Source of the DNA: Desulfocapsa sp.
GTDB lineage: Bacteria; Desulfobacterota; Desulfobulbia; Desulfobulbales; Desulfocapsaceae
DNA: 64,000 nt
Assembly: GCA_024763035.1 (NCBI GenBank)
Contig: JANTGG010000002.1
Coordinates: 48,970-112,969, forward strand
Direction of reading: 5' to 3'
Positions 1,633 to 37,365 of the stretch are shown here, piece after piece. Each line of letters begins with the position of its first letter. Positions within the stretch are counted from its first letter, which is position 1. The notes under the pieces are model-generated. The model ran no database searches and was not told the origin of the DNA. It worked only from the letters and a program-made list of their open reading frames with translations. The translations under genes and the position numbers were made by a program.

Positions 1633-1691
1633 AAAAGTACATTGACATTTCCGTTTGTTTTGGTGTAGAAAGAAAAAGTACATGGACATTT
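1633..1691 (+). promoter_or_regulatory. lexA promoter (TTGACA-N18-TAGAAA) flanked by two near-identical 18-bp candidate LexA operators
   Basis: AAAAGTACATTGACATTT (1633-1650) and AAAAGTACATGGACATTT (1674-1691), 17/18 identical. The first overlaps TTGACA 1642-1647; the second lies just downstream of TAGAAA 1666-1671. Confidence 0.6.
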
Positions 1692-1708: not shown

Positions 1709-2341
1709 ATGGAACTCACCGGCAGGCAGCAGCTTTTTTTTACATATCTGCAGAAAAAAATAGAGGAGAAGGGGCGATCACCGAGTCTGCGGGAAGCGGC
1801 AGAAGATATCGGAGTGAGCCGCAATGCGGTCGCCCAGCTGATTGGACAACTGGAACGCAAACAGATGATTCAGCGGGAAGGGCGATACAGCCGTTCCATT
1901 CGCATCCTTCCGGAACAGCCGATGGGAAGCAGGCAGCAGGATCGGGTGCGGGAACTTCCCGTGATCGGACAGATCACAGCCGGTCTGCCCATGTATGCCC
2001 AGCAGGAGTGGGACGGCTCAGTTCTTGTGGACAGCACGTTGTTTCCCGGCAGTAATCTGTTTTGCCTGCGTATCAAGGGGGAATCCATGCGGGATGCCGG
2101 GATCATAAACGGAGATCTGGTTGTCTGTGAACCCCGTCAGTATGCGGAAAATGGTGAGATTGTCGTGGTTCTTATACGGGAAGAGGAGGCGACCGTGAAA
2201 CGGTTTTTCCTGGGTGCCGATTATATCGAACTGCGACCGGAGAACAAAGCGTTTGCCCCCGTCCGCTACTCTTTTGCCGATATCCTTGTGCAGGGGAAGA
2301 TTGTCGGCGTGATACGGGATCATATTGCTGATGACAGGTGA
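1709..2341 (+). CDS. lexA: LexA SOS repressor (start ATG 1709 with GAGGAG SD, rather than 1655)
   Basis: Winged-HTH (SPSLREAAEDIGVS), Ala-Gly cleavage site (ITAGLP), catalytic Ser (GESM) and Lys (TVKR). Confidence 0.93.
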   Translation: MELTGRQQLFFTYLQKKIEEKGRSPSLREAAEDIGVSRNAVAQLIGQLERKQMIQREGRYSRSIRILPEQPMGSRQQDRVRELPVIGQITAGLPMYAQQEWDGSVLVDSTLFPGSNLFCLRIKGESMRDAGIINGDLVVCEPRQYAENGEIVVVLIREEEATVKRFFLGADYIELRPENKAFAPVRYSFADILVQGKIVGVIRDHIADDR

Positions 2342-3149
2342 GAGTCGCATAAATAAGCCTGGTTCCCTCTGTCCTGTCCTTATTGGCACCAGCGGCTATT
2401 CCTACACGGAATGGGTGGACAGTGACTTTTATCCTCAGGGGACAAGGGCTCCGGAAATGCTTGCCTTGTATGCCCGCAGGTTTCCCATTGTCGAACTCAA
2501 CTACACCTGGTACCAGATGGTTCGGGCAGAGGCGATCAGCCGGATGATTGCAAAGGCACCGGCAAGTTTTCTCTTTACTGCCAAACTGACCAGGACCCTT
2601 ACCCATGAGCGGGACCGGAACTGGCGGGAAGAACTGCAGAAGTACCGGGAGGGGATCAGACCGCTGCAAAGGCAGCTGGCCGCAATTCTTGTGCAGCTGC
2701 CGCCGGATTTCACCTGGACCACAGCCAACCGCTATTATCTGGCAAGCCTGCTGGACGGGCTGCATGGATTTCCTCTGGCTGTGGAGTTTCGCCATGTTTC
2801 CTGGGCCAGGGATTCGGTATTTGCGGAGCTGGAATCACGAAAAATTACGATGGTCACGGTGGATGCCCCCCCTCTGCCGGGACTGTTTCCCTGTCTCAAT
2901 GTGGTGACCAATCCCGAATTCTTCTTTGTGCGCTTTCATGGTCGCAATAAGCAGGGCTGGGTGTCCGGCAATATGCAGAAGAAGTTTGATTACTGCTACA
3001 GTGATGATGAACTGCACAGATGGAACGAACAGTATCTGCAGAAAATACGTGCGCAGACAGGAAACGGGTTTGTCTTTTTCAATAATCATGTTCGTGCCCA
3101 GGCACCGGAAAATGCACAGCAGCTCCAGAAAATCCTGCAGGAGGGGTGA
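2331..3149 (+). CDS. DUF72 (YecE-like TIM-barrel) protein
   Basis: Motifs IGTSGYSY..W...FYP, VELNYTWY, LVQLPP, AVEFRH.SW, RFHGRN, FFNNH; overlaps the lexA stop. Confidence 0.88.
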   Translation: MTGESRINKPGSLCPVLIGTSGYSYTEWVDSDFYPQGTRAPEMLALYARRFPIVELNYTWYQMVRAEAISRMIAKAPASFLFTAKLTRTLTHERDRNWREELQKYREGIRPLQRQLAAILVQLPPDFTWTTANRYYLASLLDGLHGFPLAVEFRHVSWARDSVFAELESRKITMVTVDAPPLPGLFPCLNVVTNPEFFFVRFHGRNKQGWVSGNMQKKFDYCYSDDELHRWNEQYLQKIRAQTGNGFVFFNNHVRAQAPENAQQLQKILQEG

Positions 3150-3153
3150 GGTG

Positions 3154-4320
3154 ATGCGGGATCGTTCCATTATCCACTTGAATGTCACCGATTTTGCCGT
3201 CGCCGTGGAACGTCTGCAGGACAATTCGCTGCGGGAAAAGGCGGTGATCGTGGCTCCACTGCAGGCTGCCCGCGCCCTTGTGTATGATATGAGTGAGGAG
3301 GCTTATGGTGATGGTGTGCGGAAGGGAATGCGGCTGGATATTGCCATGCGCCGCTGCCGGAAAGCCTGTGTCCTGATGCCCGAAATCAGCCGCTATCGTC
3401 AGGCGATGCAGGCAGTGCTTGGACAGGTCTGTGCCTACACACCTCTTGTGGAGCGGGGGGAGGAGGATGGACATCTTTTTCTCGATGTCACCGGCACCCA
3501 CAGATTATTTGGACCTCCCCAGGATATTGCCTGGCGTCTGCGAAAACAGGTGCTGGCAAACCTTGGTCTTGATCCTGTCTGGAGCCTTGCTTCCAGTAAA
3601 CTGGTTTCCAAGGTGGCATCCCGAATGGCACGTCCCCTTGGGGAATGTATTGTCGGGCATGGAGAAGAGGCGGAATTTCTTGCTCCCCTGTCTCTGTCTC
3701 TGCTGCCGGGAATAAAGCCCGCCGAAAGGCGACTGATGCAGGATTTCAACCTTCGTTCCATTGGAGAGCTTGCGGCTCTCAGTCGTGTTCAGCTGCGGGT
3801 TCCATTCCAAAAACGTGCAGATTTTCTACACGATATCAGCCGAGGCAGAGACAGGTCGCTGGTACTGCCCGAACGAAACGGAACTTCCCGGATCGTTTGT
3901 GAATATCACTTCGATACCGATATCTGTGAGCGACGGGTCTTGACAGATACCCTGACCCCGCTGATCCATGATATCGGTAGAGAGCTGCGTCGGAGAGGAC
4001 ATGTGGGGCAGCGAATCGGTATCAGACTTTTTTACAGTGACGGCAGGAGTGTGGTTCGGCAGGCAAGCTGTCGCGGAGGAAGCGACAACGATTTTCGTCT
4101 GCGGGAGCTGGCACTGGCGGCATTAAACAGGGCGTGGCAGAGGCGGACAAGGATTCGCAGCTGTATTCTTATCTGTGATCGTCTGCTTCCCCGTTCACGG
4201 CAGCAGACGCTTTTTTCCATGCAGAGTAAAAAAGAGGAGCAGCAGGGAAGAATGCTTGCCGCCATGGACACAATCTGCCACCGTTTTGGTAGAAACGCTG
4301 TGCGTCTGGGGACGTCGTAA
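3154..4320 (+). CDS. imuB: ImuB-like, catalytically degenerate Y-family polymerase (start ATG 3154/GTG 3151, not 2926)
   Basis: DinB-like fold with acidic catalytic residues lost (HLNVTDFAVAVE vs HxDMDAFYASVE; EEDGHLFLD vs SIDEAFLD); C-terminal RFGRNAV motif; sits between lexA and dnaE2. Confidence 0.83.
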   Translation: MRDRSIIHLNVTDFAVAVERLQDNSLREKAVIVAPLQAARALVYDMSEEAYGDGVRKGMRLDIAMRRCRKACVLMPEISRYRQAMQAVLGQVCAYTPLVERGEEDGHLFLDVTGTHRLFGPPQDIAWRLRKQVLANLGLDPVWSLASSKLVSKVASRMARPLGECIVGHGEEAEFLAPLSLSLLPGIKPAERRLMQDFNLRSIGELAALSRVQLRVPFQKRADFLHDISRGRDRSLVLPERNGTSRIVCEYHFDTDICERRVLTDTLTPLIHDIGRELRRRGHVGQRIGIRLFYSDGRSVVRQASCRGGSDNDFRLRELALAALNRAWQRRTRIRSCILICDRLLPRSRQQTLFSMQSKKEEQQGRMLAAMDTICHRFGRNAVRLGTS

Positions 4321-4373: not shown

Positions 4374-7361
4374 GTGTTTCCTCTAACCACACGTTCCTTC
4401 TATTCATTGATGTGCGGGGCAAGTTCCCCTGATGCACTGTGCAAAAGGGCAAAAGAGCTGGGATATTCAGGCCTCGCTCTCACCGACCGGAACACTCTCT
4501 CCGGGATGTGGGATTTTCTGCATTCCTGCAAACGGCACAGGTTGAAACCTGTTATTGGGGCGGAACTGGTCCATGCGGATCTTGATGCACCACTTGTCTG
4601 CCTGGTAAAGGATGCCGGCGGGTATGCTAATCTATGTAATGTGATCACTGTACTGAAGGACTCCCGGAAAACGCTTAATCTGGAGTATCTGCAAGAATTT
4701 CAGAATGGTTTGATATTTCTTTCTTCTTCTCCCGTGTTTCTGGAGGCTGGCAGAAAGAACGGACTGGATATCGCAGCAGACCTCGGCTGCCGTCCCACTG
4801 CCAAAAGTCGTCTTTTGTACCGCTGGGCAAAAGCCAGTGGTGTTCCAGCCGTTGCCGGCACAGCAGCGGTCATTGCCGGGGAAAACAGCAGACAGCTCTT
4901 TGCTCTTTTGCAGGCAATAGGTAAAAAGACTGTTTTTTCCATGGCAGACAGAAAAAACAGGGAGGATCCGGTTTTTCTGGAGCATCCGTCTGTATACGAA
5001 AAACGATTTTCCGTCTGGCCGGGAGTCACGGCTGCAGCCGATACGCTCGCCGGACGCTGCACTTTCAGCGGACCGGATTCCGGTATCGTTATGCCTCCCT
5101 GGAACAACAGGGGGAACACCGCGTCTGCAGTACTCCGAACCGTTGCCTATGAGGGGGCATGCAGACGCTATGGAACTGATCTTTCTGAAGTTGTGGTGGA
5201 GAGATTGGAATATGAGCTGCAGGTTATCCATGATATGGGCTTTTCCTCGTATTTTCTGGTTGTGCGCGATATCGTGCAACGTGCTCATGCTTCGACATCG
5301 TGTGGTTCTTCACGTATCTGCGGGCGGGGATCCGGGGCGGCATCGCTTGTTGCCTATTGCCTGCAGATAACAAACGTCTGTCCGGTGAAACATAATCTCT
5401 ACTTTGAGCGTTTTCTCAATCCCGGACGCACTGATCCTCCGGATATTGATATCGATTTTGCCTGGGATATGCGTGATGGTGTCCTGGATCAGGTCCTGCA
5501 TGAGCATGGAAAGCATGCGGCGATGGTGTCAACTCTGATACGCTTTGGACCACGGATGGCGATTCGGGAGACGGCAAGAGCCTTCGGGCTGGCATCCGGA
5601 GAAATTGCCAGGGTGAGCAGGCGTCTTTCCGGGCTGCATCTGCGTAAAGGGAAGACCCTTGCGACCGCTGTCCGTGACCTGCCGTCTCTGCAGGGAAGGG
5701 AACTTCCGTCACCCTGGGCGGATGTTATTGATCTCGCTTCACAGCTTATTGGCATCCCTCGCTGTCTGTCCGTGCATCCCGGCGGAGTGGTGATTACTCC
5801 GGATCCTGTTTGTTCCTATGTACCCGTCGAACGTGCCGTCAAAGGTGTTCCCGTTATTCAATGGGACAAGGACGGGGCTGAGGAGGCGGGGCTTGTGAAG
5901 ATAGATCTTCTCGGGAATCGCAGTCTTGGTGTGATTCGGGATGCCATTGAGTCGGTGCGAATAAACGGTACTGCCTTTGATGAAGAGTACTGGAATCCCG
6001 AGGAAGATCCGAAAACCAGAAGAACGGTGGCACAGGGGAAGACCATGGGCTGCTTTTATATAGAAAGCCCCGCCATGCGCCTGCTGCAGCAGAAGGCAGG
6101 TACGGGAGATTTCGAACAGCTTGTGCTGCAGTCTTCCATTATCCGACCCGCCGCCAATGAGTTTGTCCGTGAGTATGTGCGCCGGCTGCACGGCGGCAAA
6201 TGGCAGCATCTGCATCCCAAACTTGCCGAAGTCCTTGATGAAACCTTTGGTCTTATGGTGTACCAGGAAGATGTGTCCCGGGTGGCAGTGGCACTGGCAG
6301 GGTTCAGCCATGTTCGTGCCGACGGTCTGCGGAAGGTGATGTCTAAAAAAGACAAGGTGCTGCGTCTTGAACATTACCGGGATGCGTTTGCTGCGGGCTG
6401 TGCTGCAAATGGGGTGGAGAAAGAGACTGAGGAGAAGTTATGGCAGATGATGATGAGTTTTGACGGCTATTCGTTTTGCAAACCGCATTCTGCATCGTAT
6501 GCCCGGGTTTCTTTTCAGGCAGCGTATCTGAAAACCCATTATCCTGCAGAATTTATGGCGGCGGTTCTCTCCAATCAGGGCGGCTATTATTCCACTTTTG
6601 CCTATGTTTCCGAAGCGAAACGCTTGGGGCTTGTGATTCAACACCCTTGTGTTCAGAGCAGCACCATCCGCTGGCAGGGGAAGGGGATGTGTCTCCGGGT
6701 GGGACTTATGGCGGTGAGAGGGCTGTCCCGGGAACTGATGAAGCGAATTGTTCAGAGCCGTGGTGAAAAACCCTTTACCTGCAGCCTTGATTTCTGGCAG
6801 CGGGTCTTTCCCGCCAGGGATGAGGCGAAGGCTTTAATCGATTCCGGAGCCCTGGATACCATCGCCAAACGGGCAAACAGGACAGTTCTTTTCTGGGAGT
6901 TCAGTCAGGTTCGACACCTTGCGGGAGCACGGAGGAGCAGTCCGCTGTTCCCTGTGCAGCTCCCTGTCCCACCTGCTCTGCGTGATCCTGCAAAAAAAGA
7001 GTTGTTTCGGCGGGAATACCGGGTGCTTGGCTTTCTGTGTGAGAGTCATCCTCTTCTTCTCTGCAACAAACGAATAAAAGGAAGAATCCGGGCGGTTGAC
7101 TGCGCTGGATACGAGGGAAGGTCAGTTTCTTTTGCCGGCTGGCTGCTCAGTGGTAAACTGGTGTCCACTAAAAGTGGAGAAGTGATGGAATTCCTCACCT
7201 TTGAGGACGAAAGCGGTGTTTTGGAAACGACATTCTTCCCTCGGGTGTATCGGAGGTATGCGTCACTGCTGATGCCGGAAGTGCTGTATCTGCTGCAGGG
7301 CACTGTGGAAGTGGAGTATGGGGCTGTGACGCTGACAGTGAAAACGGTACGCCGTCTGTAA
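4374..7361 (+). CDS. dnaE2: Error-prone DNA polymerase III alpha (DnaE2/ImuC)
   Basis: PHP-like N-terminus, GRGSGAAS, PPDIDIDF, HPGG, KIDLLG, FCKPHSASY, C-terminal OB fold; 995 aa; SOS cassette context. Confidence 0.92.
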   Translation: MFPLTTRSFYSLMCGASSPDALCKRAKELGYSGLALTDRNTLSGMWDFLHSCKRHRLKPVIGAELVHADLDAPLVCLVKDAGGYANLCNVITVLKDSRKTLNLEYLQEFQNGLIFLSSSPVFLEAGRKNGLDIAADLGCRPTAKSRLLYRWAKASGVPAVAGTAAVIAGENSRQLFALLQAIGKKTVFSMADRKNREDPVFLEHPSVYEKRFSVWPGVTAAADTLAGRCTFSGPDSGIVMPPWNNRGNTASAVLRTVAYEGACRRYGTDLSEVVVERLEYELQVIHDMGFSSYFLVVRDIVQRAHASTSCGSSRICGRGSGAASLVAYCLQITNVCPVKHNLYFERFLNPGRTDPPDIDIDFAWDMRDGVLDQVLHEHGKHAAMVSTLIRFGPRMAIRETARAFGLASGEIARVSRRLSGLHLRKGKTLATAVRDLPSLQGRELPSPWADVIDLASQLIGIPRCLSVHPGGVVITPDPVCSYVPVERAVKGVPVIQWDKDGAEEAGLVKIDLLGNRSLGVIRDAIESVRINGTAFDEEYWNPEEDPKTRRTVAQGKTMGCFYIESPAMRLLQQKAGTGDFEQLVLQSSIIRPAANEFVREYVRRLHGGKWQHLHPKLAEVLDETFGLMVYQEDVSRVAVALAGFSHVRADGLRKVMSKKDKVLRLEHYRDAFAAGCAANGVEKETEEKLWQMMMSFDGYSFCKPHSASYARVSFQAAYLKTHYPAEFMAAVLSNQGGYYSTFAYVSEAKRLGLVIQHPCVQSSTIRWQGKGMCLRVGLMAVRGLSRELMKRIVQSRGEKPFTCSLDFWQRVFPARDEAKALIDSGALDTIAKRANRTVLFWEFSQVRHLAGARRSSPLFPVQLPVPPALRDPAKKELFRREYRVLGFLCESHPLLLCNKRIKGRIRAVDCAGYEGRSVSFAGWLLSGKLVSTKSGEVMEFLTFEDESGVLETTFFPRVYRRYASLLMPEVLYLLQGTVEVEYGAVTLTVKTVRRL

Positions 7362-37028: not shown

Positions 37029-37365
37029 ATTTTAAAAATGTCTCGATTTTAAACGATATGCCTACTCCTGGACCAGCTCCTGATGGCGTGAAAAGGTTTA
37101 AGATAATCGCTGCCTGGTTTCAGCCTATCAAAATTGAAAGTCCTTATCCAGTCTTCCCTGAAAAAAACATTATGATTTTACTCTGTTTCATTTATGAGCC
37201 AATAATGGTTTTTTCCATGAAAAAATGTACATTCATTTTTTGACTATTTTCGTTCTGTCAGGCATAACTCATAAAAGAGGCAATTATTTTTATTGCTACC
37301 TCAGAAGTACTGATACTAAAGATTTCTTGTGACTTTCTTAAATTTCCTGAACGGAGGAGTGCTGC

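Follow-up and report, generated by a model that had tools for sequence, protein, structure and literature searches.

The two near-identical boxes in front of lexA in Desulfocapsa sp. are very probably an undescribed variant of the LexA operator, which would serve a self-contained mutagenesis operon and would not be a genome-wide SOS box. The motif is conserved in all orthologous lexA promoters collected (81/81), is palindromic, lies in the promoter of an intact lexA gene and is unlike the known operator classes; on these grounds it is very probably the LexA operator of this lineage.

The lexA promoter and its operon

The window, that is, the whole stretch of DNA that was analysed, comprises 64,000 nt. 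The following features were located in it.

1633-1650, + strand: O1 (box 1), AAAAGTACATTGACATTT, with the conserved 16-bp core AAAGTACATTGACATT at 1634-1649; overlaps the -35 hexamer
1642-1647, + strand: predicted -35 hexamer TTGACA, read from the sequence, embedded in O1
1666-1671, + strand: candidate -10 hexamer TAGAAA, weak, 18-nt spacer
1674-1691, + strand: O2 (box 2), AAAAGTACATGGACATTT, with the core AAAGTACATGGACATT at 1675-1690; covers the predicted transcription start at ~1678
1697-1708, + strand: ribosome-binding region AGAGGAGAGAGG, read from the sequence, before the lexA ATG
1709-2341, + strand: lexA, 210 aa, winged-HTH and S24 peptidase domains (Pfam PF01726, PF00717)
2325-3149, + strand: DUF72 gene (Pfam PF01904, E=5e-60), overlapping the lexA stop; position kept in relatives
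3154-4320, + strand: Y-family polymerase homologue, 388 aa (Pfam IMS, IMS_C)
4374-7361, + strand: dnaE2/imuC-type Pol III alpha homologue (Pfam PHP, DNA_pol3_alpha, finger, HHH_6 and OB domains), the last gene of the operon

The first-pass annotation had described two 18-mers, 17/18 identical and 41 bp apart, and both were recovered on the + strand with this identity and a start-to-start distance of 41 bp. It had also placed one box over the -35 and the other just 3' of the -10, in agreement with the TTGACA held by O1 and with the start of O2 2 nt 3' of the weak candidate -10 TAGAAA; the lexA ATG follows 18 nt after O2. No promoter passed a strict consensus promoter scan, because the candidate -10 is weak. 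The promoter was therefore assigned from the invariant TTGACA and from a TAnnnn element, which relatives have at the same distance from TTGACA as TAGAAA. Both boxes are imperfect palindromes, as had been noted, with 12/18 (O1) and 14/18 (O2) symmetric positions. The conserved unit is 16 bp long, and the predicted functional unit is thus the palindrome AATGTAhATkTACATT (AATGTA-N4-TACATT), not the 18-mer. When the 18-mer was searched for at <=3 mismatches, the window gave O1 and O2 only, where 0.12 matches would be expected by chance, and two matches were reached in 1 of 100 shuffles. At <=2 mismatches no further site was found in the whole assembly (3.31 Mb, 48% G+C, 92% complete).

The LexA protein aligned to E. 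coli LexA structures with E=5e-29, including the catalytic residues. Its Ala91-Gly92 cleavage site, Ser126 and Lys164 correspond to A84-G85, S119 and K156 of E. coli, and both the DNA-binding domain and the self-cleavage residues are intact. No other LexA/S24 gene was found in the assembly, which has one S24 peptidase domain, and LexA is the sole DNA-binding protein of the operon. A weak LexA_DNA_bind match (L002, G000:C14:19733-22882) was considered as a second LexA and rejected, as it is a Fur-family protein adjoining rubrerythrin. This Fur/PerR-like regulator, encoded beside the rubrerythrin gene, has a long Cys-rich C-terminal extension.

Downstream of lexA the operon encodes the two proteins that define the mutagenesis cassette, an ImuB homologue of the Y family and a DnaE2-type protein. 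No RecA-like ImuA gene is present in the cassette; lexA and the Y-family gene are separated by the DUF72 gene (PF01904). The latter occupies the usual imuA place, a position kept in nearly all related loci (L033-L112). The full order lexA-DUF72-PolY-DnaE2 was seen at 67 of 80 of these loci, the remaining ones being cut off by contig ends. The N-terminal motif of the Y-family homologue reads HLNVTDF (IIHLNVTDFAVAVE), where active DinB has HVDMDCF. Asn and Thr thus appear to stand in for the two Asp residues that are catalytic in active DinB-type enzymes, so that the protein is probably catalytically inactive and an ImuB-like subunit. Typical ImuB proteins are longer than 388 aa.

The palindrome in orthologous lexA promoters

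The proposal that the boxes are duplicated across the promoter of lexA was borne out, as the gene is real and intact and the motif recurs in the promoters of its orthologs. An iterated matrix detected 184 sites in 81/81 promoters of LexA orthologs with 61-100% identity, sampled from Desulfocapsa, Desulfopila, Desulforhopalus, Desulfotalea, Desulfoprunum and other Desulfocapsaceae. Every lexA promoter at the 80 loci beyond this genome (LexA identity 61-80%) had the motif. Two sites were present in 47 promoters, three in 28 and one in 6, with site spacings peaking at 20, 23 and 41-43 bp. The genes 5' of lexA differ among the related loci, and the boxes therefore travel with lexA. The spacers between the boxes are not conserved across genera whose LexA is 61-80% identical.

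Both boxes were present, 40-42 bp apart, in 21 genomes of the same genus (LexA 68-80% identical). In these, box 1 is the invariant WGTACATTGACAT and box 2 is WGTAMATGKACAT; several species have a perfectly palindromic box 2, ATGTACATGTACAT. The family matrix and its reverse complement were correlated at r=0.90; the consensus is AATGTAhATkTACATT. Its positions G, T, A..AT..A, C and A are 97-99% invariant, and there are no compensatory changes. Such invariance without compensation is, at the sequence level, the pattern expected of a site for a dimeric protein and not of an RNA helix, and the 16-bp dyad fits the ~14-16 bp symmetry suited to a LexA dimer.

The hexamer TTGACA occurs in 76 of the 184 family sites, always in the promoter-distal one, and the conservation of O1 is owed in part to the embedded -35 hexamer alone. 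The 108 sites without TTGACA form the near-perfect palindrome AATGTAhATGTACATT. Where a promoter has three sites, the middle one contains TACAAT, the -10. Its loss in Desulfocapsa explains the 41-bp spacing there. The last site ends a median of 11 nt before the ATG. The sites overlap the -35, the -10 or the transcription start, and such placement over the core promoter is typical of repressor sites.

The recognition helix of this LexA reads S-R-N-A-V-A-Q, against S-P-N-A-A-E-E in E. coli. The Ser, Asn and Ala equivalent to Ser39, Asn41 and Ala42 are kept; Glu44 and Glu45 of E. coli are replaced by Ala and Gln. This combination fits a half-site that is still TGTA-like but differs in its outer base. 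Among the orthologs, the clade with Arg in the helix prefers AGTA and the proteins with His prefer TGTA (Fisher p=9e-11, for proteins that are not phylogenetically independent). One genome (G046) contradicts this trend, since its LexA has the His helix, yet both boxes of its promoter, spaced at 41 bp, are of the AGTA type. The covariation comes from essentially one clade, or one evolutionary event, with G046 as the exception, and we treat it as a hint only. In G049 the LexA ortholog (L221, G049:C1:520920-521534) has the diverged helix SYSNIAHRF and its promoter keeps one degenerate site, TTGTGTATATACATTT; this may be an ongoing change of specificity. One further genome, G069, is without a LexA ortholog and without any match to the pattern.

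Related sites were also found for two LexA orthologs (59% identity, sharing the SH.AVAQ helix) from two other families of Desulfobulbales, there at 200-350 bp upstream. At locus L108 the 130 nt 5' of lexA contain irregular short repeats (…CCCTTAAACCTTAAACCCTATACC…), unlike all other loci, and the operator sites lie further upstream. At four loci from other families of the order (L028, L029, L031 and L032), lexA homologues encoding proteins of 31-55% identity lie directly 3' of the end of a tyrosine recombinase/integrase-like gene (…TTMIYTHVLN…), and the motif is absent between this gene end and lexA. The arrangement suggests a mobile or integron-like context for these lexA genes.

Extent of the regulon

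Scored with the family matrix, O1 reached 26.4 and O2 26.3 bits (26-28 bits with matrices built from orthologous promoters), whereas sites elsewhere in the genome scored <=17 bits; these two are the only ones in this genome to reach 20 bits. Matches of >=10 bits numbered 52 genome-wide against 89 for a reversed-matrix control, i.e. no enrichment, with a matrix that was trained on lexA promoters only and could miss weaker functional sites elsewhere. The upstream regions of recA, uvrA, uvrD, mfd and recQ in this genome had no motif. Upstream of recA in 29 genomes of the family the best score was <=4.8 bits, against >=11.6 (median 24.4) for the lexA sites. The initial reading of the boxes as the SOS box of the lineage thus stands as far as a lexA operator is concerned, which is very probable; it does not hold for a wider SOS role, given the absence of the motif from recA in the family and from uvrA and uvrD here. 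Of the two groups of promoters in which the motif had been expected, the orthologous lexA promoters have it and the other SOS promoters scanned do not.

The exact degenerate pattern had 81 matches in 26 genomes of the genus, against 15 for a reversed-pattern control, and ~50 of them were in lexA promoters. The ~30 others were all single, and most were intragenic, some of them recurring at identical codon positions in orthologs. Intergenic matches stood in front of genes for malic enzyme, a TonB receptor, an aminotransferase, PPIase, PepSY, FadL, MscS, FmdE or an IS5-type transposase. A wider regulon was rejected, since these matches are isolated and mostly intragenic or in front of genes unrelated to DNA repair. 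In eight genomes of the family, the exact pattern clustered at lexA only, and the one stray site was the end of an IS.

In the window, one isolated sequence with a weak resemblance to the motif (AAAAATGAATGTACATTT, 15 bits) is present at 37223-37240, 135 nt 5' of a gene for a FadL/TodX-family outer-membrane transporter, and is probably due to chance. A small palindrome, ATACTTTCGTAT, lies ~20-35 nt 5' of recA (G000:C78, ATG at 5457, minus strand), just before its ribosome-binding site; its sequence has no relation to the LexA motif, and it may have arisen by chance.

As far as can be read from these scans, the lexA operon appears to be the whole LexA regulon. We lean slightly towards a broader proposal, in which the sole LexA of Desulfocapsaceae has shrunk to a private autoregulator. 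Its regulon would consist of lexA-DUF72-imuB-like-dnaE2 only, controlled through AATGTA-N4-TACATT; recA and excision repair would be independent of LexA, and the DUF72 protein would be a damage-induced mutasome partner replacing ImuA. On this view, an entire family of sulfur-cycling bacteria would respond to DNA damage with no SOS network under LexA control.

Predicted function and relation to known LexA systems

We consider it very likely that the boxes are operators bound by the LexA encoded directly downstream. In the model that we infer, from LexA binding and repression to damage induction and the transcription start, a LexA dimer would sit on each 16-bp palindrome (AATGTAhATkTACATT). With O1 over the -35 and O2 over the transcription start, bound LexA would block RNA polymerase, as in classical autorepression. 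The 41 bp between O1 and O2 amount to about four helical turns, so the sites would face the same side of the DNA and two dimers could cooperate. Upon DNA damage, RecA-ssDNA filaments would trigger self-cleavage of LexA at Ala91-Gly92, and lexA-DUF72-imuB-like-dnaE2, an error-prone translesion synthesis module, would then be transcribed. Fresh LexA would subsequently re-close the promoter.

It is unlikely that the boxes serve a different transcription factor, encoded elsewhere, and are not bound by LexA. TGTA/TACA-type palindromes are common half-sites of HTH proteins, and motif-like sequences do occur singly elsewhere, for example at the IS end; however, the motif is confined genome-wide to the lexA promoter and follows lexA through 81 loci with differing upstream neighbours. 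LexA is as a rule autoregulated, and a dedicated outside regulator for a single promoter would be the less parsimonious assumption; in addition, loss or divergence of the operator accompanies loss of LexA (G069) or divergence of its helix (G049).

The perfect -35 TTGACA in O1 and the TACAAT held by the middle site of relatives might suggest that the conservation reflects contacts of RNA polymerase only (an UP-like element, the -35 and the initially transcribed region) and that a repressor plays no part. This is very unlikely, as O2, downstream of the -10, repeats O1 at 17/18 positions, including the left half GTACAT that has no promoter role, as the 108 sites lacking TTGACA are still a near-perfect palindrome, and as two or three copies are held in fixed helical phase. 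Least probable of all, and hardly credible to us, is an element acting at the RNA level (a hairpin or leader in the 5' UTR) or a functionless residue of a local duplication. O2 would be transcribed and is self-complementary, and the boxes are near-identical; but O1 lies upstream of the predicted start, and the sequence itself is conserved, with no compensatory changes of pairs. A neutral copy would have decayed, whereas here the spacer diverged while the boxes were kept across genera.

The motif had been said to be unlike the known classes of LexA box, and this was upheld: none of eight published classes (CTGT-N8-ACAG, GAAC-N4-GTTC, GTTC-N7-GTTC, GGTT-N2-C-N4-G-N3-ACC, TTAC-N3-GTAA, TTAGTA-N4-TACTAA, GTAC-N4-GTWC and TGTTC-N4-GAACA) matched the 293-bp lexA upstream region at <=1 mismatch. 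The nearest geometry is that of the Xanthomonadales box, TTAGTArwawTACTAa (PMC2248561, Table 5), with inverted hexamers 4 bp apart, a GTA...TAC core and A/T-rich outer positions, likewise in the lexA promoter. However, TTAGTA and AATGTA are identical at 3/6 positions per half, the outer bases differ and the phylum is unrelated; even at <=2 mismatches the Xanthomonadales box had no match in the lexA upstream region here.

The E. coli lexA promoter has tandem operators, and in this respect it is like the promoter described here. The E. coli box controls ~40 genes, including recA, whereas one operon would be controlled here. The gammaproteobacterial/E. coli SOS box, CTGT-N8-ACAG (aCTGTatatatataCAGt; PMC2248561, Table 5), provides the nearest half-site. 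Written as CTGTA-N6-TACAG it shares TGTA...TACA and an AT-rich centre with the boxes here, but in these the half-sites are 2 bp closer (TGTA-N4-TACA vs TGTA-N6-TACA) and the outer base is A instead of C. Geometrically the motif thus stands between the two known types: its TGTA half-site resembles that of E. coli, and its 6-N4-6 spacing is that of Xanthomonadales. The cyanobacterial box (RGTACNNNDGTWCB / AGTACWNWTGTACT; PMC3091678) has GTAC repeats that, as in the boxes here, can be read as a tandem or an inverted repeat. The arrangement is GTAC-N4-GTAC in cyanobacteria and GTAC-N2-GTAC here, where TGTA and TACA are conserved, not GTAC. The operator also differs from GGTT-N10-AACC and TTAC-N3-GTAA, other published LexA operators (PMC8565304).

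A similar operon is known from Pseudomonas putida, where lexA2 heads and controls its own mutagenesis cassette, lexA2-imuA-imuB-imuC (PMC3901139). In both operons lexA comes first and ImuB and DnaE2-type proteins are encoded, with autoregulation predicted here; in contrast to P. putida, which also has LexA1, the LexA here is the sole one in the genome, and DUF72 is in the imuA place. Control of recA outside LexA, suggested here by the absence of the motif, has parallels in Deltaproteobacteria, according to reports as they are cited in PMC6511836 and PMC3901139: LexA of Geobacter sulfurreducens does not bind the recA promoter, and in Bdellovibrio bacteriovorus canonical SOS genes are not LexA-repressed.

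By 2021, 17 LexA motifs had been counted (PMC8565304). In the literature library that was searched, neither this motif nor any work on LexA/SOS in these taxa came up, and an earlier description in key reviews is possible. What is new is the motif itself, the lineage, the sole-LexA status and the replacement of imuA by DUF72. LexA is unusual among bacterial regulators in that its binding motif has changed many times, and each new motif helps to trace the co-evolution of regulator and site. The operon would represent a minimal one-operon LexA circuit driving an error-prone polymerase and a DUF72 protein, which ties the uncharacterised DUF72 family to damage tolerance. The matrix can be used to annotate the regulation of this operon across Desulfocapsaceae and related Desulfobulbales genomes.

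A different operator was seen at one locus of the same order (L030, G038:C1), which encodes a distant LexA with 36% identity. It has a classical GAACAAATGTTC box ~30 nt upstream, beside TTGACA, and therefore at least two unrelated LexA/operator types coexist within Desulfobulbales.
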